A stretch of DNA of 64,000 nt. Origin: Chthoniobacterales bacterium (lineage in GTDB: Bacteria > Verrucomicrobiota > Verrucomicrobiia > Chthoniobacterales > UBA6821). The DNA lies in NCBI GenBank assembly GCA_019747735.1, contig JAIEQL010000007.1, positions 10,456 through 74,455 on the forward strand, read 5' to 3'. Positions within the stretch are counted from its first letter, which is position 1; each line of letters begins with the position of its first letter. A program made the translations under genes and the position numbers. The notes below the pieces were generated by a model. That model saw only the letters and a list, made by a program, of their open reading frames with translations, was not told where the DNA came from and did no database searches. Shown piece after piece: positions 6,843 to 43,734 of this stretch.

Positions 6843-9569
6843 CTAAAAATTCTGTGGCTTGGGCGGGCCAAACAACCCTAAAATGCCCTTCTTTTTAGGC
6901 TTAGGCATGGGTGGTGGTTCCAATTGGTATTTGAGGTTCTTTGCTTTTTTTCCAAGTTCCGATTTGCCTCCTTCTTCTTCACTTACTTTTTGCATTGTTT
7001 CATTCGAATCAATGACTATTGGCTGAATCATCACCACAAGTTCTGTTCTATTTCTATTTTGCTTGGTATGTCCTCCGAGCAAAGGTCCGATTACCGGAAG
7101 TGCACTAAGATAAGGGATGCCAGACTTATTATCTTCTTTTTCGTCTTGGATGAGTCCTCCAAGTACAATGGTGGAGCCACTGGGAATACGAACGCTGGTA
7201 TTGAGTTCTTGAGTATTAACAACAGGAGCATTGACCTTTTGTTGGGTTAACGCAGCGGTAGCGGCTACATCAACAGATTGGTTCTGTTGAGAAATAATGA
7301 GGTTAACTTCTTTATCGGAATTAATCAGTGGGATCACTTCCAATTTTAAAAGTACATCTTGATAGGAGATGTTAGCCGTCAGAGAATTGGCTGATTGATT
7401 TGGATTTGGGGTTGGAGATCCAGCAACAACACTACTGAGTGTTGAAGATTGATAGGGAATCCGTTGGCCTGAAAAGATCGTGGCTTTACGGTTGTTGCTT
7501 GTATACACGACGGGACGTGCAATGGTACGAAACTTGCCGGTGGTCTCTAAAAAATTAGCATACGCATCGACAGAACCACTGATAGCTCCAAAGAGGGTGA
7601 GTCCTCCTGCTCCCTGAGCAAGAGCGTTAGCGGCTGTTGTGGGAATACCCGCTGCTCCACCTCCTGGTGGAATTAATTGGGAGCCATCACCACTGAGAAG
7701 CGTGTTGAATCCTTTGTAATGGAAAAGGTAAGCAGCTCCATAATCCATTCCGTTGCCTAGCTTCATTTGGCCAATAACCGCAGCCAGATAAACTTGCTTG
7801 GGACGTTGATCGAGAAGGTCGATAATTTGACGTGCCTTGGCTTTGCTCTCTGGAGGACCGTAAACAATAATACTATTCGCTGTCGGATCAGCTACCAGAC
7901 TGGTCGCGCCAATGATGGCAGATTGAGGAGGAGCTTGTGGAGTGGACTCATTTAAACGATCGGCGGTATTTCCTCCTCCAGAACCTGACATGCCTCCTGA
8001 GGAGGAGCTTCCAGAAGAGCCATCCATCGAACCAGAAGAGCCACCAAGCCCTCCTCCCATGATGCCATTGCTATTTTTAGAGCCGTTTGCAGAGGTCGCT
8101 TGTGGGGTGGCTGTAATATTGTTTGTCGAGGAATCGTCATCTTTATTTTTGAGCATCTGAATAAGCACAGGAAAAACATCGGTGACCGACATATAGTTGA
8201 GTGGTCTTACGAGTGGCTCTTCTGGTTGCTGAGCTTGATCGAGTTTGTCAATGAGTTCTCGCACGTAGCGGTAGTTTTCAGCACGGGTCACAAGAAGAAT
8301 GCGGTTAGTTCTTTTATCGGCGACAAATTGTACTTTGCCACTGACCACGCGCTCTTCTTCAGTGCTTTCTGAGGAAGATTGAGTCACCGCTGGTTGTCCT
8401 TGTTTTCCAAGGCTTCCTGGGCCACCAGGGCCGCCAGGAGCTCCTGAGCTGCCACTGCTGGCAGCCTTACTGCTACCGGGAATGCTACTGCTCTCTTTTC
8501 CAAAGATCTGATATAAGGTATCGACTGTTTTTTCAGCATCAGCACGCTGAAGTTGAATAAACTCGGTGATGATTTGGGAAGGCTCGTGATCGATGACTTG
8601 GAGGATAGCAAGCGCTTTGCGCACGATGGGAGTCTTGTCGGTCATGACAAGAGCGCTTTTATTAGGAACAGCAACAATCGATCCAAAGGGATTAAATTGA
8701 ACGACCCCTTGCAAAATATTGATCGCTTCATTAGGTGTCAAAAAATGAAGTGGTTGATAAAAACTAACAAGTTTATCCCCGTCAACTGGAAGAGCTGATT
8801 CTTCCAGGTAGAGAGGGACACCTTCTGTGCGAGGAGGACGATTTGGGCCAAGGATCTTGATCGTTTTTTCATCTGAAGGAACCAAGGTATAACCATTCAG
8901 AAGCATGGAGCTTTCCAGAATGCTGACGGCATCTTTTTTAGAAATAGGATCAGCAATCATAATCGAGAGCTCAGGACCAGAGAGATTGGAGTCACGAATA
9001 ATTCGTTTGCCTGTCAGCGTTTCATAAAGAGAGAGAATTTCTTGAATCGAAGTATGTGGAAATTGGATTTTTATTTTGTCATTAGGAACATTCGAGGAAG
9101 GGGAGGGCACAACACTAGATTGTGAGGAGATAAGTTCTGTAGTAGATCCTTTTCCTTTGAGGGTTGGGAGTGTTGCAGCAATAGGAGGAAGTGCTATGGG
9201 AGATGAGTGGAGGTTAGAAGATGAAGTTGAAGTGAATTCTGCTTGTTTGTCAGCGTCACTCTTCGATGTTTTCTTGGGTTTTTCAGAAGGTGCTGCTATG
9301 GGAGCAGTAGCAGAAGAAGGATTGGAGGGTTGATTTGTTGAGGATATCGCTAGAGTTGGTGTTGATGATAAATCAGGAGAAGGTGTTGAGGAGGGTGATA
9401 GTGAGGGTGAAGTCGTTGGCGTTGATATCGCTGTTTCCGTTGGTGTCGCTGTTTCCGTTTTCTTGGAAATTTCTTCCAAGGCTGATTTTATAGCAGAAGC
9501 TTTCTCCTCTTGGGCGATAAGAGGAAATGATAAAAAGAAGAAGATGGTGATAAACAAAAAACGATTCAT
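6843..9569 (-). CDS. secretin (PilQ/GspD family) with Ser/Thr/Pro-rich N-terminal and Gly/Ser-rich internal low-complexity regions
   Basis: 908 aa with a signal peptide. C-terminal secretin motif ...GGLIQDEKEDNKSGIPYLSALPVIGPLLGGHTKQNRNRTELVVMIQPIVI. It is the last gene of the pilus/T2SS-like operon. Confidence 0.85.
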   Translation of the reverse strand: MNRFLFITIFFFLSFPLIAQEEKASAIKSALEEISKKTETATPTETAISTPTTSPSLSPSSTPSPDLSSTPTLAISSTNQPSNPSSATAPIAAPSEKPKKTSKSDADKQAEFTSTSSSNLHSSPIALPPIAATLPTLKGKGSTTELISSQSSVVPSPSSNVPNDKIKIQFPHTSIQEILSLYETLTGKRIIRDSNLSGPELSIMIADPISKKDAVSILESSMLLNGYTLVPSDEKTIKILGPNRPPRTEGVPLYLEESALPVDGDKLVSFYQPLHFLTPNEAINILQGVVQFNPFGSIVAVPNKSALVMTDKTPIVRKALAILQVIDHEPSQIITEFIQLQRADAEKTVDTLYQIFGKESSSIPGSSKAASSGSSGAPGGPGGPGSLGKQGQPAVTQSSSESTEEERVVSGKVQFVADKRTNRILLVTRAENYRYVRELIDKLDQAQQPEEPLVRPLNYMSVTDVFPVLIQMLKNKDDDSSTNNITATPQATSANGSKNSNGIMGGGLGGSSGSMDGSSGSSSSGGMSGSGGGNTADRLNESTPQAPPQSAIIGATSLVADPTANSIIVYGPPESKAKARQIIDLLDQRPKQVYLAAVIGQMKLGNGMDYGAAYLFHYKGFNTLLSGDGSQLIPPGGGAAGIPTTAANALAQGAGGLTLFGAISGSVDAYANFLETTGKFRTIARPVVYTSNNRKATIFSGQRIPYQSSTLSSVVAGSPTPNPNQSANSLTANISYQDVLLKLEVIPLINSDKEVNLIISQQNQSVDVAATAALTQQKVNAPVVNTQELNTSVRIPSGSTIVLGGLIQDEKEDNKSGIPYLSALPVIGPLLGGHTKQNRNRTELVVMIQPIVIDSNETMQKVSEEEGGKSELGKKAKNLKYQLEPPPMPKPKKKGILGLFGPPKPQNF

Positions 9570-10858: not shown

Positions 10859-12221
10859 TGGGTAAAGATCCTTCTAGTTCAAAACGAACATTGTTTTTTC
10901 CTGCTAATTTAGGTTGCTCACTGACCCACTGGTATTCTTGAAGCTCAGGAGCGGCTTTAATAGATTCGATAAAATGATAAGCTTGGGACACATCAGAAGC
11001 TTCTCCAGTAATTTGCAGTTTTCCATCAGCTCCTGCGAGCGTAATAAGACGAATTTTTTCTCCTTTCATTTTGCTAGCAATGGTAGCTAACAAATCGAGA
11101 ACATAAACTCTCGGATCAAAAGCACCTCGAAACTCGTGCCAAGTAAGAATTGTTTGAGTCGCTTTTTCAATAGCCGGCTGGTTGCCTGCAAGTTGATGAG
11201 TGAGGTGGCGCAAAATACCTTCTTTCACCAAGAGATTGGCCCCTCCCAAAAAAAGAAAGAAAAAATAAACTAAGAATGCTAGAGCGATAATTTTTTTTAC
11301 CTGTTTTCTTTTTTCTTCTAACAAGCGAGCGTGACGTGCTTGTGGTGAGGGAAGGTCAAGGGGTGGGGTGGGGAGTATGGGTGCTGGCAGAGAAGCATCC
11401 GCTTGATCTTCCAAAACTTCTTGGAAAGAGCCTTTCAAGAAGAGGCGTGCTTCTTCGGAAAAAGGACCAAAGAGACGTACTTTTTGAGGGATTTTTTCAA
11501 GAATAGCTTCTGCTTGAAATTGAAAGGCCATTCTTTTGATCAGCCCAAGAAGTGATTGGGTGACCTCTGTTTCGCCACTTCCTGAAAACCAAACCAACTG
11601 ATCTTCTCGTAGAAAACCAAAACAAATTTCGCCAAGCTCTCGCCAGAGAAAGAGCTCTGCTCCCTCAGCAAACAAGAACCTTGCAGCAGCTTCAAAATGA
11701 GTTGCGTATTCCAAGTAAGGAACAGTCGAAGCCGATGGGGTGGCTGTAGAGGCCAGCGCCACAACGAGTGTGCGTCCTTCTTTTTGGCATAAGGGAATTA
11801 TTTTTAATCCCTCCGTCATGTCTCGCCGGAGCAGATGTTTGCTGGAGAGTTCCAGCATTGCCAGTTCGTGAAGGTTGCCTTCTGAGGCAATCCAAAGCGG
11901 ATGGATGATCAGGTCATTTGTCGGAACACCAACCACAAGATTTGCTTTTGGTGAAGGAATAGTGAGGGAGGAGGCTTGTGCTTCAAGAAGAAGTGGCGCT
12001 AATGTCTCTTCCTTTTTTTCTTGGGTCGATTTTCTAGAAGGTATTTTCCAAAGCTGCCATTCTCCTTTTTCAGACGCTGGACGCAATACAAGGAGATCAT
12101 CTGCAGAAGAAGCAGGGAGCAACTGTTCTGCCCATTCTTTTGCTTGATCGAGGGGAAGCATTCGAGCTAACGCCTCTATTTTTTCAAGTAAAGAGGAGAT
12201 GGAAAAAGAGAACTTATTCAT
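10836..12221 (-). CDS. PilM-PilN fusion / GspL-like assembly platform protein
   Basis: 461 aa: a cytoplasmic domain of about 310 aa, a TM (IIALAFLVYFFFLFLGGANLLV), then a PilN-like periplasmic tail (KLQITGEASDVSQAYHFIESIKAAPELQEYQWV). Confidence 0.6.
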   Translation of the reverse strand: MNKFSFSISSLLEKIEALARMLPLDQAKEWAEQLLPASSADDLLVLRPASEKGEWQLWKIPSRKSTQEKKEETLAPLLLEAQASSLTIPSPKANLVVGVPTNDLIIHPLWIASEGNLHELAMLELSSKHLLRRDMTEGLKIIPLCQKEGRTLVVALASTATPSASTVPYLEYATHFEAAARFLFAEGAELFLWRELGEICFGFLREDQLVWFSGSGETEVTQSLLGLIKRMAFQFQAEAILEKIPQKVRLFGPFSEEARLFLKGSFQEVLEDQADASLPAPILPTPPLDLPSPQARHARLLEEKRKQVKKIIALAFLVYFFFLFLGGANLLVKEGILRHLTHQLAGNQPAIEKATQTILTWHEFRGAFDPRVYVLDLLATIASKMKGEKIRLITLAGADGKLQITGEASDVSQAYHFIESIKAAPELQEYQWVSEQPKLAGKNNVRFELEGSLPNAKTSPE

Positions 12222-12438: not shown

Positions 12439-13578
12439 TTATTGTTCTTGCCAGCTTAACATACTGTTATTTCCACCCACAGACATGACGACAATGATGC
12501 GATGAGTGACCCCATAACAAGAGCCAGAGCTATCAATACGACGTACGTTTCCTGTGATATCAAAATAATTTTTAAGAATGCTTTGTTGAAGTTGATTAGG
12601 GCCAATCAGTTTAATGGCATCGTCAATACTACTAAAAGGAACTCTTTTTCCAGAAATAGTATCAGGCTGATCGCACAACTTAATAAAAGTCTCCACTTGT
12701 TCTGGGGTGAGGCCAACGAGATCAATCAGCATATCTGGACTGCAAAACATAATATTAATTTTGCCAGGATTAAAAGTTGAGAAATATCTTTTCCATTGAG
12801 GCTTTGCTTTCATGACGGGAGCAAAACCCATCACCATGGCCATCTCTTGAGTATTAACAAAAGGAGCATTGGGTGGATAGCCATCTAATCCAATGGCCTC
12901 ATAATCGCCGCTTTTGGCGCCATGAGTTGAACGCAACATGGTAGGGCTTTGCCAGTCATAGAGTCCATCGATAGCAGTTTCTTGGTCTTTTTCTGAAACT
13001 CCCCAAGCTGTAAAGAGCCTTTGAAAGATAATGCGATCTGATTGTGCGAGCCAAATATTAGGATTGATGAATGCTGTTTCATTGTTGAGTTGGACCACAA
13101 AACTTTCTCCTTCTTTACTCGTAGGATCACCTTTCACTAAAAGTGGGTCGCCTGGTTTGATGTTGGTATTCATTCCCATGGCAATCCCGCTGAGAGCCAT
13201 TTGACGCGCACGGAAGACTCGTTCAGCGTGTGACTCTTCTTCTACCCAGTTATTGACGGTTTTTACCGTCAAGAGAAGAAGACCCGCTAGGAAAGCAATA
13301 ACCCAAAGAACCATGGGAAGGGCGAAGGCTCTAGAGTCTGTCCAAATGCTACTGCTGAGGCGCAGAGTGGCGTCGCTGTGATGCTCGTGTCCTCGAGTAT
13401 TTCCATATACACTGCGGTACTGCGCTTCTTGCTTCTTGCTCTGCATCCTGAGCAGCGCATTTGGGCCAGACTCTTTCATTTTGAAGCGACAGATTTTTTT
13501 AAATGTCCAAATGCTTGAAGTCATCGTGTTGCGATGACGAGTTAACCGAAGAGTGAGAACTGAAAACTTTTGTTTCAT
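12439..13578 (-). CDS. GspK-like minor pseudopilin with a repeat-derived N-terminal extension
   Basis: GspK-type N-terminus RAFALPMVLWVIAFLAGLLLL followed by a large periplasmic domain. The ORF start overlaps the gspJ-like stop (ATGA). About 80 extra N-terminal residues include the PE-A element. Confidence 0.65.
   Translation of the reverse strand: MKQKFSVLTLRLTRHRNTMTSSIWTFKKICRFKMKESGPNALLRMQSKKQEAQYRSVYGNTRGHEHHSDATLRLSSSIWTDSRAFALPMVLWVIAFLAGLLLLTVKTVNNWVEEESHAERVFRARQMALSGIAMGMNTNIKPGDPLLVKGDPTSKEGESFVVQLNNETAFINPNIWLAQSDRIIFQRLFTAWGVSEKDQETAIDGLYDWQSPTMLRSTHGAKSGDYEAIGLDGYPPNAPFVNTQEMAMVMGFAPVMKAKPQWKRYFSTFNPGKINIMFCSPDMLIDLVGLTPEQVETFIKLCDQPDTISGKRVPFSSIDDAIKLIGPNQLQQSILKNYFDITGNVRRIDSSGSCYGVTHRIIVVMSVGGNNSMLSWQEQ
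13333..13474. repeat. PE-A element inside the 5' part of the gspK-like ORF
   Basis: Termini agagtctgtccaaatgctactgctgagg (13333-13360) and cctgagcagcgcatttgggccagactct (13447-13474). The core gcgtcgctgtgatgctcgtgtcctcgagtatttccatatacactgcgg...ctgcatc is homologous to the acnA copy and to the 2050 copy. Confidence 0.85.
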
Positions 13579-14330
13579 CGTGCAGGCATTTTAAGGCCCG
13601 CTGGGGCTGGAGCTTTATTAAACTTTGGGTCTGACTGAGAGTTAGAATTCGTGACGTTAGGTGGCCTTATTGGCATGAAGGAAGAAAAAGAATTTTTAAC
13701 AAGAGCCGGAACATAAAAAATCGCCTCCACCATGCTTCTCATTCCAACAACTTCCATTTCAAGGCGGACTAACTGAGGTCTTCCAGCTCCTTGAGGCCAC
13801 TCATCAGACCATGTGCCGTTTTTAAAAAAACTCCAATGAGGTCTTTTTATTTTTGGTAGAAGAGTTACCCAAGTGTCCCCTTCATATAGCGTAGCTAATT
13901 CGGAACCTTGAATATTTTTAGGAACTCTCAAGATGGAAAAAGAACGTGTTTTGTCGTTGGCAGCTCGTGGTGAAAGGATCAGCGTTCCACCAGCAAGGCT
14001 GGCAAAACCAAATAAGCCTGTAGCATTTTGAAAATAGAGATCAGGAACTCCATTGTTGTTGGAAGCATTGTCGGTGTTTAAATAAATAGATCCATTAGCA
14101 GGGAGATTGAGAAGGGCATCACGTGTGAGGTGCAAAAAACCTTCGAGACGCCGCATCGTAAATTGCTCGATAAGTGCTTCTTTAGTAGACTCAATAGCAG
14201 CTGTGGAAATGGAGTAGAGCGCTCCTGCCAACAAGGCTAGAATAGTCATGGCAAGGACGATTTCTAGTAGTGTGAAGGCGGAATGCTTGGAACGACCATT
14301 GTCGTTGCAGTTGATAGCGACATTTCTCAT
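13575..14330 (-). CDS. GspJ-like minor pseudopilin
   Basis: Prepilin-type N-terminus KHSAFTLLEIVLAMTILALLAGALYSI. 251 aa. Overlaps both neighbours by 4 nt. Confidence 0.65.
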   Translation of the reverse strand: MRNVAINCNDNGRSKHSAFTLLEIVLAMTILALLAGALYSISTAAIESTKEALIEQFTMRRLEGFLHLTRDALLNLPANGSIYLNTDNASNNNGVPDLYFQNATGLFGFASLAGGTLILSPRAANDKTRSFSILRVPKNIQGSELATLYEGDTWVTLLPKIKRPHWSFFKNGTWSDEWPQGAGRPQLVRLEMEVVGMRSMVEAIFYVPALVKNSFSSFMPIRPPNVTNSNSQSDPKFNKAPAPAGLKMPAR

Positions 14331-14761
14331 GGACGATAAATAAGAATTTCAGCAGAGTCTTTTGTTTTTTTATTTTGAGCAGTAATTGTCAGGCGAGAAA
14401 TGCCCACTACCTCTTGATTGTTAGCGTTGTTGAGGGTAAGTGGGGTGAGGGATTCAGTGATAGCGATGCCGCTGCTAGTTTTAATAGTGCGGTCTCCTTC
14501 TAGTGGAGGATCGACCATGTTGTAAGCAAGGCGTGATTCTAGTTCCAGGCGGGAAAGTGCTCGTTCACGGGCTTCAATACAGGCTTCTGCCACTGATTCT
14601 AAGGCAATCACCAACCCTCCCACAGCGAAAGAAAAAACAGTGAGGGCTACTAGAACTTCGAACAAAGTAAAACCTCGTGCTCTCGCAAAGCCATGGTAGT
14701 TCGTCTCCCCGCCTCCGCGGGGAGAAGGTTGTAATTTGTGGTTCGTAGTTAAATGAGCCAT
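14327..14761 (-). CDS. GspI-like minor pseudopilin
   Basis: RGFTLFEVLVALTVFSFAVGGLVIALESV prepilin motif. 144 aa. The long leader contains a GC mini-hairpin (14705-14724). Confidence 0.65.
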   Translation of the reverse strand: MAHLTTNHKLQPSPRGGGETNYHGFARARGFTLFEVLVALTVFSFAVGGLVIALESVAEACIEARERALSRLELESRLAYNMVDPPLEGDRTIKTSSGIAITESLTPLTLNNANNQEVVGISRLTITAQNKKTKDSAEILIYRP

Positions 14762-14787
14762 GTCAAAAATTTATTTTATAGGATAGG

Positions 14788-14889
14788 AGAGTCTGATCAA
14801 AATGCGCTGCTGCGGAGGAGAGCAAGGCACGAGGCGAGCACCACAGTAATGTAGCTCTACGCCGCAGCAGTAGCATTTGGACAGACTCT
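14788..14889. repeat. PE-A element, short variant (102 bp), between the gspH-like and gspI-like genes
   Basis: Arms agagtctgatcaaaatgcgctgctgcgg (14788-14815) and ccgcagcagtagcatttggacagactct (14862-14889). The termini nearly match the 13333-13474 copy in inverted orientation. Core cacgaggcgagcac...gtaatg. Confidence 0.85.
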
Positions 14890-15323
14890 TACTCATCACG
14901 GGCGACTTGAGCAGTTATAGGATCAAACTTCATGGTAAAAGATGCTCCTTTTCCTGAAATTTGCAAACTGAGGGGATCACATATTCCTTCACTATTAAAT
15001 TGCCAGAGTTCATTAGCTGTGGGGGGGCGAAATTTTTTATCGTTAAAGCGCCTTATTTGAAGCTGCCAGCCTTCCGGAAGAAGATGGGAATCGGAGAGAG
15101 AAATAAATTTTGTTTCACCAGTAGTAAGTGCTTCTGAATGTGTTTTTTCAACCAAGGTAGCGATCGAATCTTGAATCCGGTCTACTTCTGTGTGATGCCA
15201 GGCATCAGCCATGTAAGGGGCGGCAGCAACCATCAAGATGGCAACAACGGCAAGGGCGATAAGAATTTCTAAGAGGGTGAAGCCGTTCTTTTTTTTCAAA
15301 ATGATAGATAGATTAAGTCTCAA
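14889..15323 (-). CDS. GspH/FimT-like pseudopilin
   Basis: KKNGFTLLEILIALAVVAILMVAAAP prepilin N-terminus. 144 aa. First gene of the minus-strand operon. Confidence 0.65.
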   Translation of the reverse strand: MRLNLSIILKKKNGFTLLEILIALAVVAILMVAAAPYMADAWHHTEVDRIQDSIATLVEKTHSEALTTGETKFISLSDSHLLPEGWQLQIRRFNDKKFRPPTANELWQFNSEGICDPLSLQISGKGASFTMKFDPITAQVARDE

Positions 15324-20724: not shown

Positions 20725-20762
20725 TGAATATTTTTTTGAACAGAGTTTATTGATTCTAAAGT

Positions 20763-20878
20763 GATGAAAGTTTGAGTGCTAGCAGTTTCAGTTTAATAGA
20801 TGCTTCGGGCTTTATTTTTTAAAGCGACCAAGCGCGAAGGTGACTCAAACTCAAACTAGAAATACTCAAACTTTCATC
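20763..20878. repeat. PE-C element (116 bp) in the murE-murF spacer
   Basis: Left arm gatgaaagtttgagtgctagcagtttcagttt (20763-20794). Right arm gactcaaactcaaactagaaatactcaaactttcatc (20842-20878). The centre, gcttcgggctttattttttaaagcgaccaagcgcgaagg, is homologous to the 32007-32120 copy. Confidence 0.85.
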
Positions 20879-20919
20879 ATGCCTAGTTTCATTTTTCTCA
20901 GATAAACAAACCAACAATA

Positions 20920-27844: not shown

Positions 27845-30787
27845 TTACGCAGTAAGCAACTGCCTCAAAATAAAAGGCAAGATTCCTCCGTGTTTGTAAT
27901 ACTCAATTTCAATAGGAGTATCGATGCGGACTAGAACCGGAATCTCCTCGCTTTGCCCATTAGCCCTCGTGCATAACTCTACTGCTGACGCGCATTGCGT
28001 CGTCGCTCCAGTGCTCACTCCCTCGAGTACCTTATGTACACTTAGTTGCTGTGCGCTGGAGGCTTCTGGCACTGCATCGCCAGCAGCGAATTCTACAAGA
28101 GGTCTATTTTTTCTAGTGATGCGCAGGATTGCTTCCTGGCGAGGTTGGAGTTTTTCAGAGAGTCCTAAGAGATCGTAAGTTTCTGTCCCATTAAGGTTGA
28201 GGGATTGCGCAGAAATTCCTTCTAAAAACTGTAGTGGCAAGACCCCCATGCCAATCAGGTTGGAGCGATGAATTCGCTCATAGCTACTGGCAATGACTGC
28301 CCGGACGCCAAGGAGTCGTGTCCCTTTAGCAGCCCAATCACGGCTGCTCCCTGTTCCATACTCTTGCCCTGCAATCACCAGGAGAGGAGTTTTTTCTGCG
28401 GCATAACGCAGCGCAGCATCATAAATGCTCATGCGTGTCTCTTCTGGTTGATGAAGTGTTTCGCCTCCTTCCACCCCTGGTAGTATGAGGTTTTTGATGC
28501 GAACGTTTGCAAAAGTACCACGCGTCATCACACGATCATTGCCGCGACGGCTTCCATAGCTGTTAAAATCTTCTGCCTTGACGCCTTGCTCTTTTAAGAA
28601 AAGACCAGCAGGTCCTTGCTGCTTGATAGCACCAGCCGGAGAAATATGGTCTGTAGTCACGGAGTCTCCAAAGATTGCTAACGCACGTGCGTTTGTAATT
28701 TCTGGAATAGGCTCAGGCTTCATTGAGAAGTGTTCGAAAAAAGGTGGCTCCTGAATGTAAGTGCTCTTTTCGTTCCAGAGATAGGTAGCTCCTGAGGTTG
28801 AGGGAATCTCATTCCAGGCAGGATTGTGTGCAGCAAAGTCAGAGTAGTATTGCTGAAAAACTGCTGGTGAAAGGGCATCCTGTAGCGTTGCTCGAATTTC
28901 AGCGAGACTAGGCCAGAGATCGCGGAAAAAAACGGGTTGTTTATTTTTTCCAAAACCAACTGGTTCTGTTGCCAGGTCGATATTCACACGTCCTGCTAAG
29001 GCGAAGGCAACAACAAGTGGTGGCGACATCAAGAAGTTGGCCTTAATGGCAGGATGAATACGTGCCTCAAAATTACGATTTCCCGAGAGGACTGCAGCAG
29101 CAACCAAATCATGTTCTTGGATGGCTTTTTCTATTGAAGGATGAAGTGGCCCAGAGTTGCCAATACATGTTGTGCAGCCATAACCTACGGTTTCAAAACC
29201 GAGTTGATCCAAGTAGGATTGCAATCCTGTTTTTTGAAGATAGTGAGTCACTACTCGAGATCCTGGAGCCAGAGAGGTTTTGACAGTGGGATTGACTCTT
29301 AAGCCATATTCTACGGCTTTTTTAGCGAGTAGCCCAGCAGCTAACATAACGCTAGGATTGCTAGTATTTGTACAGCTGGTAATGGCGGCAATGAGAACGC
29401 TCCCATGATGAATTTCTAATCCATTTTCATGGAAAGGAGATTCTGGCATTTGTTTAACAGGATCCGGGGTGGGGCGATCTAAGATCATTTCCTGTTCATC
29501 ATGCGGAAGTAGTGAGGCTCCAGAAGAAAGAGAGAACCGCTCTTTGAGCAGTTTCTTGCTCTTGCCGTAACCACCTTCAGAAACATTTTTTTCAAAGAGT
29601 GTCTCCAATGTTGGTTTTAATTGAGAGAGTTCAATTTGATCTTGTGGTCGCTTAGGCCCAGCCACACTTGGTTTGACGCTGCCAAGATCGAGGGAAAGAT
29701 CCACGCTGTAATCAATGTCACCAGCTTGTGGCATGCCAAAAAGTCCTTGTGCTTTAAAATAATTTTCAAAAACGGCGCACTCTTCTGTACTGCGTCCTGT
29801 TGCCTTGAAATAAGCAACGGATTCTTGATCGACAGGAAAAATGCCCATTGTGGCTCCATATTCAGGGGCCATGTTGGCAATGGTGGCGCGATCGGGAGAG
29901 GTTAACTTTGCTGCCCCTTGGCCATAGAACTCAACAAATTTGTTCACTACCTTGGCAGCTCGTAAAAAGTGGGTCATGTGCAGCGCAAGGTCTGTGGCAG
30001 TGACCCCTTCTGCGAGTTCTCCTGTGAGATGGACTCCGACAACCTCAGGGGTTAGGAAATAAACAGGTTGGCCGAGCATGCCTGCTTCTGCCTCAATACC
30101 GCCAACTCCCCATCCAACAATACCCAGCCCATTGACCATCGTTGTGTGAGAGTCTGTTCCCAGCACGGTGTCAGGATAATAGAGTTCTCCTTGTGAGAGG
30201 GACTGGTGAAGGACTCCTTTTGCCAAATATTCTAAATTGACTTGGTGCACGATCCCAATTCCTGGAGGGACAATACGAAAGGTTTTAAAAGCTTGTTGTC
30301 CCCATTTGAGAAATTCATAACGCTCTCGGTTGCGCTGAAATTCCATTTCTAAGTTGAGGTCGATAGCATCGGCTCTTCCGTAGTAATCAACCTGCACAGA
30401 GTGATCGACCACCAGATCAACTGGCACCAACGGTTCTACAATCGAAGGATTGCCACCTAGTCGTAACACTGTGCTACGCATGGCAGCCAAGTCGACAAGG
30501 AGTGGAACGCCCGTAAAATCTTGCAATACGATACGCGCAACGACAAAAGGAACCTCCTTTGCTGCTGTTTTTTTGGCATTCCATTTCGCCAAGTCCATGA
30601 CATCTTGCTGAGTGATTTTGCGACCATCACAATTTCTTAAGACCGACTCAAGCACGACCCGAATACTAAAAGGAAGCCGTGAAATCGGCCCTGCACCTTG
30701 CTTCTCGAGTTCTGGTAACGAATAGAAAAACCCTTTTTTACCAGGAGTGATTTCAAAGGTGGAAAGAACGTCGAAAGGATCGGTCAT
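27845..30787 (-). CDS. acnA: aconitate hydratase A carrying a 49-codon repeat-derived insertion near the C-terminus
   Basis: [19 protein letters not shown] and SGNRNFEAR Fe-S ligand motifs. The ORF is 980 aa, and the excess length is accounted for by the inserted 49-aa segment. Confidence 0.93.
27959..28105. repeat. PE-A element (147 bp, 49 codons) inserted in-frame in acnA
   Basis: The DNA ctactgctgacgcgcattgcgtcgtcgctccagtgctcactccctcgagtacc...ctgcatcgccagcagcg is homologous to 13333-13474 (same orientation) and 2050-2195 (reverse). Imperfect terminal IR 27962-27987 pairs with 28079-28105. Confidence 0.85.
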
Positions 30788-32006: not shown

Positions 32007-32120
32007 ATCAATCATTCATAAAAGTTTGAGTTATCAGTTTGACTATAAATAGGCGCTTCACGTTTTATTTTTAAAAATGCGCGAAGCGCGAAGAGGACTC
32101 AAACTCAAACTGGTAGCACT
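32007..32120. repeat. PE-C element (about 114 bp) between dgkA and the TPR gene (convergent)
   Basis: Left arm cataaaagtttgagttatcagtttgact. Right arm ggactcaaactcaaactggtagcactcaaactttct. Centre gcgcttcacgttttatttttaaaaatgcgcgaagcgcgaag. Confidence 0.85.
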
Positions 32121-32130
32121 CAAACTTTCT

Positions 32131-34413
32131 TCACTTTTCCCAAAGGAAATTATCTAGGCGCAACTTGCTAATTCTTGCTTGGGCTTCAGCTGCACGAGGC
32201 CCATTTTCAGCAGCAATTTGCTGATAGAGCCGAATCGCTTCACTCCATTGTTGCTGTTGTTCTAATAAACGAGCTGCCTCAAAAGCGGCCTTGTCGTGCC
32301 ATAGTGGCTCTGGTTCTTGCGAGGTATTGCTCTTCATCGCCTCATAATAAGCCGCTAGAGCAGCATCATTGTCTTTTAGTTTTTCTTCGATGAGTCCTAT
32401 TTTGCAGAGTGCTTGATTGCGCCAGTAAGCAGGGGTATCAGGTGTTTCGGCTAGTTGGCGCCAGACAGCAATAGCTGCTTGATAGTTTGCAGGATCCTTG
32501 GCTCCGAGCCCGCTGAGCGTATCTCCCTTGGCCATTTGGGCTGTTCTTTTTATTTCAAGAGGCGCTTCCTCTGAGGCTAAAATCTGATCATCAATAGCGA
32601 TAGCATCAAAAGGTAAAGCTTGAGCATTTTTTAAAGCCGCTTGCTCCAGACGTGCTTGCCAGAGGTCGGAGCCTGCCTTGCTACTTTGAGCGACTTCTTC
32701 AAGAAGCATGAGAGCATCGTCGATCGACTTGGAGTCCATACTGCGAGAGGCTGCTTGAGCAGCCAGGAGTAATGCTTGACGGCCTAATTCTGAAGAGGAT
32801 TCGGCTTTGCCCACCGTTTCAAGCTCCACGCGTGCCTCTCTAACATTACCAGAAGTTAATAATGCTTCTCCTAGTTTCATGCGCACCTCATTGGTAAAAG
32901 GGGAATTCGGATGGGTTTTTAAAAAAAGGTGTGCTGCTTGAATGACTTGAGCCGCACTGTTGCGGGTGCCTTTGTCACTATCGAGAATAGCAGTGTATTC
33001 TGCTTTTTCGGTAGTGCTTGCATTCTCTTGTTTGTCGGTAGCCGTGTTGGGAAAGCTAAGAGGGACTGTTTCTGATGAGGTTGCCATCATATGCACGAGC
33101 CCTTGATTGTAGAGGGCATCTGCAGCGAGATAGGAATCAAGAGAGGCGGCTTGTGTAAAGTCGTGTTCCGCTGCTTGGAGGTGGTTCAATGCAATTTCAG
33201 CTAGGCCGTGCTCAAAAGCATATTGTGCCTGCATAGCGGGAGTAAGATTGGTGTGATCATGAAGATAAGTAAGAGCACTGTTAGGGTCTCCTTCTGATAA
33301 TTTATTTTCAGCTAATTCTAACGACGCTTCTTCAGCAAGTGGGTGATGAGGATAAGTAGCTAGAAAAAAAAGAAGCAGTTGATCTGCCTGATCACGATGG
33401 CCTAACCGTCGCATCATCCGTGTGTAAGGAAGAAAGGCGTAAGAAGCACGCAAAGGTTGCGAGGTATCCTGGCTCCATCTAGAAAGCGAGCTCACGTCAT
33501 TGCTATTTTGCAAAAGTAAGAGTTGCTCGTATTGAGCCATTAATTCAGGGATGCGAGGCGACTTAGGATTTTCTTGAAGATACTTTTCTAACAATGGTTG
33601 GGCTTGTGCAGGTTGATGAAGAGCAATATCGCAAGCAATCATTCCCGAGAGAGTTGCTGAGGAGACCCAGTCGTTTTTCAAAGGAAGAGAGCTCCATCGT
33701 TGTAGGGCCTCTGAGGCATCACCTCTAGCCCAAGCAGCAAGAGCAAAGAGATAAGCGAGGCGTGGTTCTTTGAGCAGTTCCGGTTTTTGTTGCAAGAGTT
33801 CTTCGGCTTCTCCTGTGCGATGAAGAGCTAGTAGTAGGGCTACCCGTTCTTGTAGTGCTACGGCTCCCATGGATGAAGTCGTAGAGAGAGGCTCCAGTTC
33901 TTTCAGGGCTTGATCATATTCCTTATGATCTCGAGCAATACGTGCTAGGGCGATGTGAGTGGCATCACGGCAGACCTGTGGCAATCGAGGTGCGTTGAGG
34001 ATTTGTTCAAAGAGTTTTTGCGCTTCTGCTGAAGCTCCTTGCGCAAGCAGCGCTTGAGCTTTCCAAAATACAACCATCTCATCGAGCTTGTCCGTTTCTT
34101 GAGGGGTAAGATCACTTGAATTTAAGAGGGTGAGCGCCTCTTCAGGTTTGCCTTCTGTTAAGAGAATTTCTGCAAGCCTCAAGGCAATCGCTGGACGTTT
34201 TTTGGGATCAGTTTCTTGTTGTAGTTGGGTGCGTAAGATAGAAGTTGAGATTTGTGGCAAGTCTTCAGAGGCAGCATGAGCAGCAAGATCATTGTTAGAA
34301 GCAGTAGAGACCGTTGGAGTCAATGCTGCTTGGGAGTTGGTTTCTTGAGCAGGCGCTGATGCTAAAAAAACCACTAAGAAAAAAATGAGGGCAAGAATAT
34401 TATTTTTCATCAA
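32131..34413 (-). CDS. secreted TPR-repeat protein (760 aa)
   Basis: Signal peptide and a helical repeat character with Ala/Leu/Gln richness throughout. Overlaps the lpxI 3' end by 14 nt. Confidence 0.7.
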   Translation of the reverse strand: MMKNNILALIFFLVVFLASAPAQETNSQAALTPTVSTASNNDLAAHAASEDLPQISTSILRTQLQQETDPKKRPAIALRLAEILLTEGKPEEALTLLNSSDLTPQETDKLDEMVVFWKAQALLAQGASAEAQKLFEQILNAPRLPQVCRDATHIALARIARDHKEYDQALKELEPLSTTSSMGAVALQERVALLLALHRTGEAEELLQQKPELLKEPRLAYLFALAAWARGDASEALQRWSSLPLKNDWVSSATLSGMIACDIALHQPAQAQPLLEKYLQENPKSPRIPELMAQYEQLLLLQNSNDVSSLSRWSQDTSQPLRASYAFLPYTRMMRRLGHRDQADQLLLFFLATYPHHPLAEEASLELAENKLSEGDPNSALTYLHDHTNLTPAMQAQYAFEHGLAEIALNHLQAAEHDFTQAASLDSYLAADALYNQGLVHMMATSSETVPLSFPNTATDKQENASTTEKAEYTAILDSDKGTRNSAAQVIQAAHLFLKTHPNSPFTNEVRMKLGEALLTSGNVREARVELETVGKAESSSELGRQALLLAAQAASRSMDSKSIDDALMLLEEVAQSSKAGSDLWQARLEQAALKNAQALPFDAIAIDDQILASEEAPLEIKRTAQMAKGDTLSGLGAKDPANYQAAIAVWRQLAETPDTPAYWRNQALCKIGLIEEKLKDNDAALAAYYEAMKSNTSQEPEPLWHDKAAFEAARLLEQQQQWSEAIRLYQQIAAENGPRAAEAQARISKLRLDNFLWEK

Positions 34414-43071: not shown

Positions 43072-43206
43072 GCTACGAGTTGCAAAGGGTGCTGAAAAAT
43101 AAATGCTAAAGATTGTTATCAAAACTCATTTTCCTAACTGGATCCCTGCCTTCGCAGGGATGCGGCTAACTTCGTAGTGGCACTTCAACTTTTACCTTTA
43201 ACTTTT

Positions 43207-43665
43207 ATGACCTCTCCACTCTATTTTATCCCACTGATTTTCCTCCTTCTTGCTTGTGATCAGCTCACCAAGCTGCTTGTTTGTTACGCGATTCCTCTTT
43301 ATGGAACGCTAGCACTGATTCCCAAGTTTTTTTATCTCACGCACCTGTATAACACAGGAGCTGCTTTTGGAATGCTGCATGATAGCAACCGTTTTTTTAT
43401 CGGCGTTTCGTTGGGAGCGTTCTTATTTCTTTTTTGGCAACGCCGTCATTTTGCCTCTACTTCAATGCAAGTTGGCTGGATTTTGATCATGAGTGGCATC
43501 TTGGGAAATCTCTGTGATCGGCTTTGGCGGGGGCACGTGGTTGATTTCCTCGGTTTTGAAATACTCGGTTATTACTGGCCTCCTTTTAATATCGCAGACT
43601 CCTGTATTTGTATTGCAACAGGATTTTTCTTATTGAGTGCTTTCTCTTCCTCGCGAGGGAGGTGA
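43207..43665 (+). CDS. lspA: lipoprotein signal peptidase II
   Basis: NTGAAFG, GNLCDRLWRGHVVDF and FNIADSCI motifs. The ATG at 43207 is preferred over the GTG at 43177. A GC mini-hairpin lies upstream at 43142-43161. Confidence 0.88.
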   Translation: MTSPLYFIPLIFLLLACDQLTKLLVCYAIPLYGTLALIPKFFYLTHLYNTGAAFGMLHDSNRFFIGVSLGAFLFLFWQRRHFASTSMQVGWILIMSGILGNLCDRLWRGHVVDFLGFEILGYYWPPFNIADSCICIATGFFLLSAFSSSRGR

Positions 43666-43682: not shown

Positions 43683-43734
43683 AAAAAAGGGGTCAGTCCG
43701 GGTATCCCGGGATACCCGGACTGACCCCTTTTTT
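43683..43734. terminator. PE-B perfect 52-bp palindrome acting as a probable bidirectional intrinsic terminator between lspA and the GNAT gene
   Basis: aaaaaaggggtcagtccgggtatcccgggatacccggactgacccctttttt is its own reverse complement. A GC-rich stem flanked by A6 and T6. It overlaps the last 14 codons and the stop of the GNAT ORF. Confidence 0.8.

Follow-up and report, generated by a model that had tools for sequence, protein, structure and literature searches.

The question raised by this locus is how a 142-bp palindromic repeat can sit within the 5′ end of a gspK-like pseudopilin gene, directly before the segment that encodes the mature protein, and whether the repeat is translated there. 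We addressed it in a 64,000-nucleotide stretch of a Chthoniobacterales genome (hereafter the window) and in related loci, designated by L numbers where they need to be told apart.

The maximal gspK-like ORF spans positions 12439..13578 on the minus strand (379 codons), the conserved mature part starting at the F of codon 85 (13326-13324). It matches the Pfam family PF21687 (T2SSK_1st) with 35.4 bits against a cut-off of 26.2 (E = 1.9e-8) and has 93 homologs in Verrucomicrobia, the close ones being from Chthoniobacterales MAGs and several being named GspK by their source. The gene stands in a gspH-I-J-K context: the Pfam N_methyl signature was found in the three genes upstream, all on the minus strand, namely a gspH-like pseudopilin (14889..15323, 35.5 bits), a gspI-like pseudopilin with a 30-residue leader (14327..14761) and a gspJ-like minor pseudopilin (13575..14330, 28.6 bits, with a T2SSJ match under the cut-off), and a GspD secretin is encoded at 6843-9569. 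The homologs of the gspK-like ORF are mostly 291-315 amino acids long and span only about 78% of the query. The difference lies at the N-terminus, where the window protein has 84 residues before its prepilin-type junction versus a median of 13 (interquartile range 9-22.5) among the 67 homologs with residues before the junction, which bears out the abnormal extension described in the initial annotation.

GspK is a prepilin-like protein inserted N-in, with a leader that is removed by prepilin peptidase. Its junction in the window, R-A-F-A-L-P-M (13312..13332, minus strand), has a predicted cut (↓) between A (13329-13327) and F (13326-13324). In the homologs the junction takes the form A or G↓[M/F/I/L]-A-L-P-[M/L/I/V]-V-L-W, with Ala at position -1 in 36 and Gly in 31 of the 67 sequences, and with M, L, I or V but never Glu at +5; the window sequence R-A↓F-A-L-P-M-V-L-W, without Glu at +5, fits this GspK pattern. 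We take the [A/G]↓FALP junction to be the GspK version of the prepilin-peptidase site, at which XcpX/PulK are processed according to published work. By analogy, the leader is probably cut off at A↓F by prepilin peptidase. The 84-residue leader contains 17 Lys+Arg versus 5 Asp+Glu (net charge +12) and no hydrophobic stretch, and the membrane anchor follows from residue 85, where the Kyte-Doolittle maximum of 2.6 begins. The residue at -1 is Ala and not the canonical Gly; Ala is as frequent as Gly in the GspK clade, and the gspJ-like protein here also has Ala.

The palindromic element, of the PE-A subfamily, occupies 13333..13474 on the minus strand, in gspK orientation (142 bp), with the coordinates and sequence initially assigned to it. 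It is bounded by the terminal inverted repeats AGAGTCTG...CAGACTCT (also written AGAGTCTGTCCAAATGC…GCATTTGGGCCAGACTCT), and its RNA is predicted to form one end-to-end hairpin (MFE -59.5 kcal/mol, z -5.5) that none of 200 shuffled sequences equalled in stability. A hairpin of -59.5 kcal/mol in a coding region would hinder ribosomes, which counts against translation through the element. In the gspK frame the element provides 47 stop-free codons, from GAG (13473) to TCT (13333), so that about 47 of the extra residues do derive from the 142-bp copy, as had been proposed. The encoded peptide, ESGPNALLRMQSKKQEAQYRSVYGNTRGHEHHSDATLRLSSSIWTDS, abuts RAFALPMVLW without a gap in the ORF, and the window junction reads ATG AA[A GAG TCT … GAC TCT] AGA GCC. 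No Rfam family matched at the gathering threshold across the whole window, and in E-value mode the element gave chance-level matches only (E 4-9); the element is thus no described Rfam RNA family.

Four copies of the repeat family, mutually alignable, are present in the 64-kb window. A 29-nt core pattern matches three times versus 0.00 expected and a 25-nt terminus twice versus 0.00 expected; these counts and the four-copy alignment agree with the earlier assignment of the gspK and acnA copies to the same family. The second PE-A copy (14788..14889, plus strand, inverted relative to 13333-13474) is 102 bp long, with the core deleted, and folds into a hairpin of -48.9 kcal/mol; it sits between the gspH-like stop, its last base lying inside the TAA, and the gspI-like start. 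Two inverted arms match it to the gspK copy, one of 55 nt (84% identity) and one of 29 nt (83%). A weak hybrid -35/-10 appeared at the edge of this 14788 copy in the promoter scan. The third copy, from another subfamily, lies in frame inside the aconitase gene (27961..28105, approximate boundaries, minus strand) and encodes an insert of ~53 residues, residues 161-220 of the query standing opposite only 7 residues of rabbit IRP1 (3sn2). The fourth is intergenic (2050..2195, approximate boundaries, plus strand), belongs to a third subfamily and has the ends TAAGAGGG...CCCTCTA.

The gspK and aconitase copies were initially described as being read in different frames. In gspK the conserved CTCGAG core does appear as ACT-CGA-GGA, in acnA as CTC-GAG-GGA, and the claim holds for the 3′ half of the element; it does not hold for the 5′ half (…AGT GTA…), where the reading frame is identical in both genes. 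In PE-A the apical loop is longer by one base (GGAAAT vs AAGG-T), and this 1-nt indel is the reason why the 3′ half of PE-A falls in the ACT-CGA-GGA frame. The PE-A peptide …RSVYEHTRGREHRSDAVLRFSSSIWTDS was also seen at L071 and L023.

The two PE-A copies bracket gspI and gspJ in inverted orientation, as the initial annotation stated, but the inversion that it considered possible between them is unsupported. An inversion would place two operon genes antisense; the two copies share no identical run longer than 25 nt. In at least four samples, contigs of the same species (L076) carry gspH–copy–gspI–gspJ in the window orientation, and collinearity with the window extends to the related loci holding both gspI and gspJ, so that an inverted arrangement found no support across the upstream-copy junction in these samples. 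The short-read contigs end about 186 nt past gspJ, inside the element, and the second junction is therefore beyond their reach.

Outside the window, the core pattern was retrieved from 61 metagenome contigs, yielding 46 distinct full copies, while the scan of genome-collection contigs returned one Chthoniobacterales MAG only (L001). The metagenome census was anchored on the core, which makes the seemingly conserved core and variable arms an ascertainment effect that we left uninterpreted. Since RNAfold overshot into the flanks when applied to flanked regions, copies were folded in fixed 142-nt windows: end-to-end folding was predicted for 41 of the 46 (median MFE -54.7 kcal/mol, median z -5). 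The family termini fall into at least five types, and short-read contigs break within the element. In-frame insertions with conserved protein on both sides were found in a GspE-like ATPase (L027), in an LpxL/heptosyltransferase ORF (L029, two copies), in MiaB (L034, two copies) and, in the opposite orientation, in PDDEXK_2 proteins (L035, L066). Together with the aconitase insert, these cases speak for translation of the family at other loci. We found no report of such repeats in Verrucomicrobia in the open-access literature, and this repeat family of freshwater Verrucomicrobia is apparently undescribed so far.

A depletion of stop codons had been suspected for the element and is present among the metagenome copies. 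Counted over 28 clusters at 85% identity, each copy has on average 1.57 fully open frames versus 0.73 ± 0.14 in dinucleotide shuffles (0/1000 reach the observed value) and 9.0 stop trinucleotides versus 12.3; the copies are related, so that the shuffle test overstates their independence. When the 3′ half is anchored on CTCGAG, the frame R0 (CTC-GAG) is open in 39 of the 46 copies and R2 (ACT-CGA-G) in 32, versus a single copy for R1, in agreement with the earlier statement that the element is stop-free in at least two frames of this strand.

This property matters for the question of translation. An unlikely explanation, but one with several points in its favor, is that the element is an untranslated intercistronic RNA, the gspK-like protein starting at a near-cognate codon at or just past the element's 3′ end, or at Met 13314-13312, in which case Ala-Phe-Ala-Leu-Pro would be dispensable. 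The open frame would then reflect the element's intrinsic lack of stops, as suggested by R0 and R2 being open in most family copies whatever their context. At L071, the start codon of a heptosyltransferase gene (MKLLLIRND…) directly follows a PE-A copy, and the same frame is open through that copy although this gene has its own ATG. An open frame alone is therefore no proof of translation, and open frames are partly an intrinsic property of the element. Many other PE-A copies likewise abut start codons from the 5′ side: at L019, L043, L067, L059 and L024 a gap of 0-8 nt separates the element from the start codon, as in a 5′-UTR element.

The gspK-like ORF of the window has four in-frame ATGs, all on the minus strand. 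The first (13576..13578) overlaps the gspJ-like TGA as ATGA and would give the 84-residue leader; that the frame stays open up to this overlap was confirmed, and the same junction exists at L002. A further ATG lies at 13524-13522. The third candidate (13477..13479) lies just ahead of the element, whose first full codon comes two codons later (ATG AAA GAG...), and, judging from the sequence, is likely to be the ancestral short-leader start. The last (13446-13444) is inside the element. A Shine-Dalgarno-like sequence is missing in front of each of them, so that all four are candidate starts, and the upstream ATGs lack this support against an untranslated element. If a canonical start is assumed, at least 40 leader residues are translated, 39 of them encoded by the element. 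Beyond ATG 13446 only near-cognate codons are available in frame, a CTG at -13 (13365-13363) and an ATT at -7 (13347-13345), on which initiation downstream of most of the element would have to rely unless Met 13314-13312 is used. Against the latter, [G/A]-F-A-L-P is conserved in 67 homologs and its residues must therefore be translated.

Support for translation through the element came from a comparison of the window with nine related gspK loci (L002, L004-L009, L074 and L075). A family member occupies the same gspK junction in five of the ten (the window, L004, L006, L007 and L008) and is absent from the five others (L002, L005, L009, L074 and L075), which provide the uninterrupted alleles whose search in relatives had been recommended. 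The closest relative, L002, whose mature GspK is 90.8% identical to that of the window, has the same ATGA overlap with gspJ and a 46-codon open leader. Short leaders occur at L009 (MKISRISNFKKKPRA directly before FALP) and at L005 and L074, where the start codon is TTG or GTG, while L075 has a 98-codon open leader unrelated in sequence to the element. Among the occupied loci, the GspK identity to the window is 81% for L004 and 57-58% for L006, L007 and L008; the elements of these four end 0-2 codons before [A/G]-F-A-L-P and are read in the aconitase frame, as exemplified by P0015 (FADADERQGVDGAQKVSVHEVLEASSTGATKPFAAAIEY), which was compared with the aconitase insert.

Each of the five occupied loci has an open frame that runs through the element to the conserved motif, and the element's length keeps an upstream ATG and the motif in frame, which counts against an untranslated RNA. 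This frame begins at an ATG located 1-3 nt past the stop of the upstream gene in L004, L006 and L007 and overlapping the stop in L008. An in-frame ATG within 4 nt of the gspJ stop is found at all six loci whose open frame directly adjoins gspJ, again arguing against an untranslated element. Furthermore, at L004, L007 and L008 no ATG, GTG or TTG lies in frame inside the element or between it and F-A-L-P, so that an intact GspK can be made only if the element is translated. In L007 and L008, which are short metagenome contigs, possibly chimeric at the repeat, the motif moreover reads LPIVLW, which leaves no downstream Met that could serve instead. The combination of an element with a closed frame was met in none of the ten loci, including L074 and L075, which were chosen for their short-called N-termini; long-leader loci surfaced via gene callers that extend ORFs, and these two loci are a partial control of this ascertainment bias.

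Taken together, it is reasonably probable, from these comparisons of sequences, that translation of gspK includes the element, as a segment of a long precursor leader, and that the element represents a tolerated in-frame insertion. In the scenario that we propose, PE-A, a non-autonomous repeat belonging to a wider family of Chthoniobacterales-type Verrucomicrobia, would have entered the 5′ end of gspK as an in-frame insertion of 141 nt (47 codons), past the start codon and directly before [G/A]↓F-A-L-P. Translation would start before the element or at its 5′ boundary (ATG 13578 or ATG 13479), and the element would encode a portion of a cytoplasmic leader that is long, basic and non-hydrophobic. 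Prepilin peptidase would then remove this leader at the junction and leave the mature GspK unchanged, which may be why this position accepts such insertions repeatedly. The insertion upstream of a prepilin-type cleavage motif, a point missed in the initial annotation, would be the simplest reason for the tolerance.

The history of the site appears to involve more than one event. The window copy shares 82-84% identity with the PE-A copies of the unrelated loci L071, L023, L043 and L057, whereas it matches the copies at the orthologous site over about 66-70% of its length only. Orthology of the window copy with those of L004 and L006-L008 was rejected on these values and on the absence of the element from L002. 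This absence and the closer likeness to copies from unrelated loci point to recurrent insertion, and the simplest history suggested by the sequences is that different subfamilies inserted independently at one spot, or that one replaced another. The repeated occupation of the spot in turn implies a preferred target or an unusually permissive site. Element-free junctions read …TTG AAA AAT AGA GAA… at L005 and …CCT AGA GCA… at L009, and an in-frame insertion of 141 nt immediately past the short-leader start 13479-13477 could account for the window allele. The comparison of these gspK alleles with and without the element (L005, L009) gave no readable clean target-site duplication; PE-A copies are flanked by xA...Tx and those of other subfamilies by TA...TA, which is indistinguishable from an extension of the inverted repeats. 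We infer that the element moved by transposition.

The absence of the element from the closest relative means that the insertion is probably recent, and this would suit a damaged gspK, i.e. an incipient pseudogene or silenced gene whose open frame is a short-lived accident. We regard this as highly improbable: the mature part is undamaged and shares 91% identity with that of L002, the whole operon is intact, and more distant lineages retain both an element and an intact gspK.

It is also conceivable, though we hold it to be distinctly unlikely, that the RNA hairpin regulates the operon, by gating or lowering gspK translation or as an RNase III site, its coding content being incidental. The RNase III variant would uncouple the stability of gspHIJ from that of gspK and the genes downstream. 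A regulatory role of either kind is compatible with translation of the element. The very stable fold of 13333-13474, the second copy between gspH and gspI, and the presence of an element at the gspJ-gspK junction in half of the orthologous loci are all in keeping with such a role, which the MITEs Correia and ERIC do play (PMC10969869). However, L002 and four other loci do without the element, the different subfamilies at the site have the look of repeated colonization and not of conservation, and promoter and terminator scans remained at chance level.

These features invite a comparison with the Rickettsia palindromic elements (RPEs), short palindromic repeats that interrupt housekeeping genes without loss of the reading frame (Ogata et al. 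2000 Science 290:347; Claverie & Ogata 2003; summarized in PMC10969869). Both kinds of repeats are about 100-150 bp long, palindromic and non-autonomous, with many dispersed copies and several subfamilies, and both occur repeatedly in frame in unrelated housekeeping genes that are left intact, with a recognizable peptide in a preferred frame. The likeness is one of behavior; a resemblance in sequence was not apparent. The hosts differ, being free-living/freshwater Verrucomicrobia (Chthoniobacterales) here and obligate intracellular Alphaproteobacteria for RPEs. The gspK insert lies in a presumably cleaved prepilin leader, whereas RPEs lie in a surface loop of the mature protein, and, unlike RPEs, many of the verrucomicrobial copies stand directly 5′ of start codons.

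The family also resembles MITEs such as the Neisseria Correia/NEMIS, the enterobacterial ERIC and the Coxiella QMITE1 elements (PMC10969869, PMC5896051). It shares with them a small size and terminal inverted repeats, the termini here being AGAGTCTGTCCAAATGCTACTGCTG and its imperfect complement, as well as internally deleted variants (the 102-bp copy), locations within operons and overlapping ORFs, and ends often flanked by T and A. It differs from them in that no parent insertion sequence or transposase with the same termini was found among the 75 loci searched here, the terminus pattern occurring only at short elements. On the evidence of these sequences, the PE-A family is RPE-like in behavior with MITE-like features.

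Type IVb and other long-leader prepilins offer a parallel for the site itself: they have a basic cytoplasmic leader before a [G/A]↓hydrophobic junction and membrane anchor, and their mature protein is unaffected by the content of the leader. Their known leaders are about 15-30 residues long and not repeat-derived; that of the window GspK, in contrast, would have 40-84 residues, 39-47 of them from a mobile repeat. The particular feature of this case is the repeated colonization of a presumably cleaved prepilin leader, which would explain the tolerance.

Several PE-A copies lie 0-8 nt from start codons and the gspK start was colonized independently; on these grounds one may ask whether the family homes to translation-start regions as a portable module, the gspK copies being positively maintained. 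The module may be a cleavable N-terminal pro-peptide, or an RNA hairpin setting the output of the downstream cistron. We consider this reading very unlikely.

If the element is indeed translated as part of a cleaved leader, selfish DNA within coding genes, classically known from Rickettsia, would extend to abundant free-living freshwater Verrucomicrobia, and a cleaved leader peptide would be a natural safe harbor even for a 47-codon hairpin-forming repeat. The gspK loci would constitute a natural experiment on the leader length tolerable in a prepilin. In practical terms, variable and often wrong N-termini are to be expected from gene callers in these genomes, and short-read assemblies break or may chimerize at these repeats.

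A minor observation concerns the leader segment located upstream of the element in the gspK frame. A decayed second copy in 13475-13578 was considered and rejected, the terminus repeat there being 12 nt only; outside this repeat, 13475-13600 shows no significant similarity to the element (32 of 300 shuffles score equally high). The 12-nt direct repeat of the element terminus, TGTCCAAATGCT, is located at 13504..13515 (plus strand), its second occurrence being at 13339-13350, and is possibly a solo-end remnant of the element.

The gspK leader of the closest relative (L002, whose GspK is 91% identical) lacks a PE-A copy and carries, in the same leader region as the copy of the window, a different insertion of ~65 nt (in the stretch 3040-3125 of L002) with an imperfect 10-nt direct repeat on its flanks (CCATCGCAAC … GTCGTCACAAC). 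The hairpin GTCATCG-CAACA-CGATGAC is common to this leader region and to positions 13525-13543 of the window. In the close GspK homologs P0004, P0006, P0007, P0009 and P0010 and in the related locus L075 (1-408), the leader is open over 41-118 residues, and its sequence bears no relation to the PE-A element; these long leaders may reflect the colonization of the same region by other repeats. Insertions may be collecting in the leaders of other pseudopilins of the window as well: the gspI-like leader is unusually long, at 30 residues, and contains a small GC-rich palindrome (CTCCCCGC-CTCC-GCGGGGAG, 14701-14720) encoding the peptide SPRGGGE.

PE-A-type copies end 0-8 nt from an ATG, the apparent start of the adjoining gene, in six metagenome contigs (L019, L043, L067, L059, L024 and L071), with flanks of the type TTTCAT|AAAGAGTC. 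This proximity suggests either that start-codon regions are preferred as targets or that the copies have a function in the 5' UTR. Members of the family are also found in tandem, as pairs spaced by 120-175 nt, in the Chthoniobacterales MAG contig L001 (1-240), in L013 (about 11500-11700) and in the metagenome contig L034 (100-400), the last within a MiaB that carries both copies, each in frame.

The PE-A repeat breaks short-read assemblies, as all short-read contigs of the same species as the window (L076-L078, Logan assemblies SRR150851xx) stop within the element, ~186 nt past gspJ; on these contigs, the gene caller likewise placed the gspK start at the ATGA junction. In the 3-kb metagenome contig L008, a gspH-like gene (838-1245) is directly followed by gspK with the element (1235-2305), with neither gspI nor gspJ, an arrangement explained either by a deletion between repeat copies or by an assembly chimera at the repeat.

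Upstream of gspI, a weak sigma-70-like site lies on the minus strand at 14773-14800, its -35 (TTGATC) falling within the end of the inverted 14788-14889 PE-A copy and its -10 (TAAAAT) outside it; the count of such sites is at chance level for the region (one found vs 1.6 expected).

The window harbors two further repeat families. A second palindrome family, unrelated to PE-A and of the form AAAAAGGGGTCAGTCC…GGACTGACCCCTTTTT, is represented by copies at 2801-2850 and 43684-43733 and by a related 117-nt hairpin at 6079-6195, inside an aroE-like ORF (5614-6606). mutL contains a perfect 50-nt copy in frame, encoding the peptide KKGSVPGSRDPGTDPF. The third copy, which overlaps the C-terminal end of a GNAT-like ORF and has convergent genes on either side, looks like a bidirectional terminator. 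The third repeat family, built of AAACTCAAACT / AGTTTGAGTTT units present in both orientations, occupies positions 5461-5593, 9206-9232, 20758-20879, 32016-32137 and 43181-43210.
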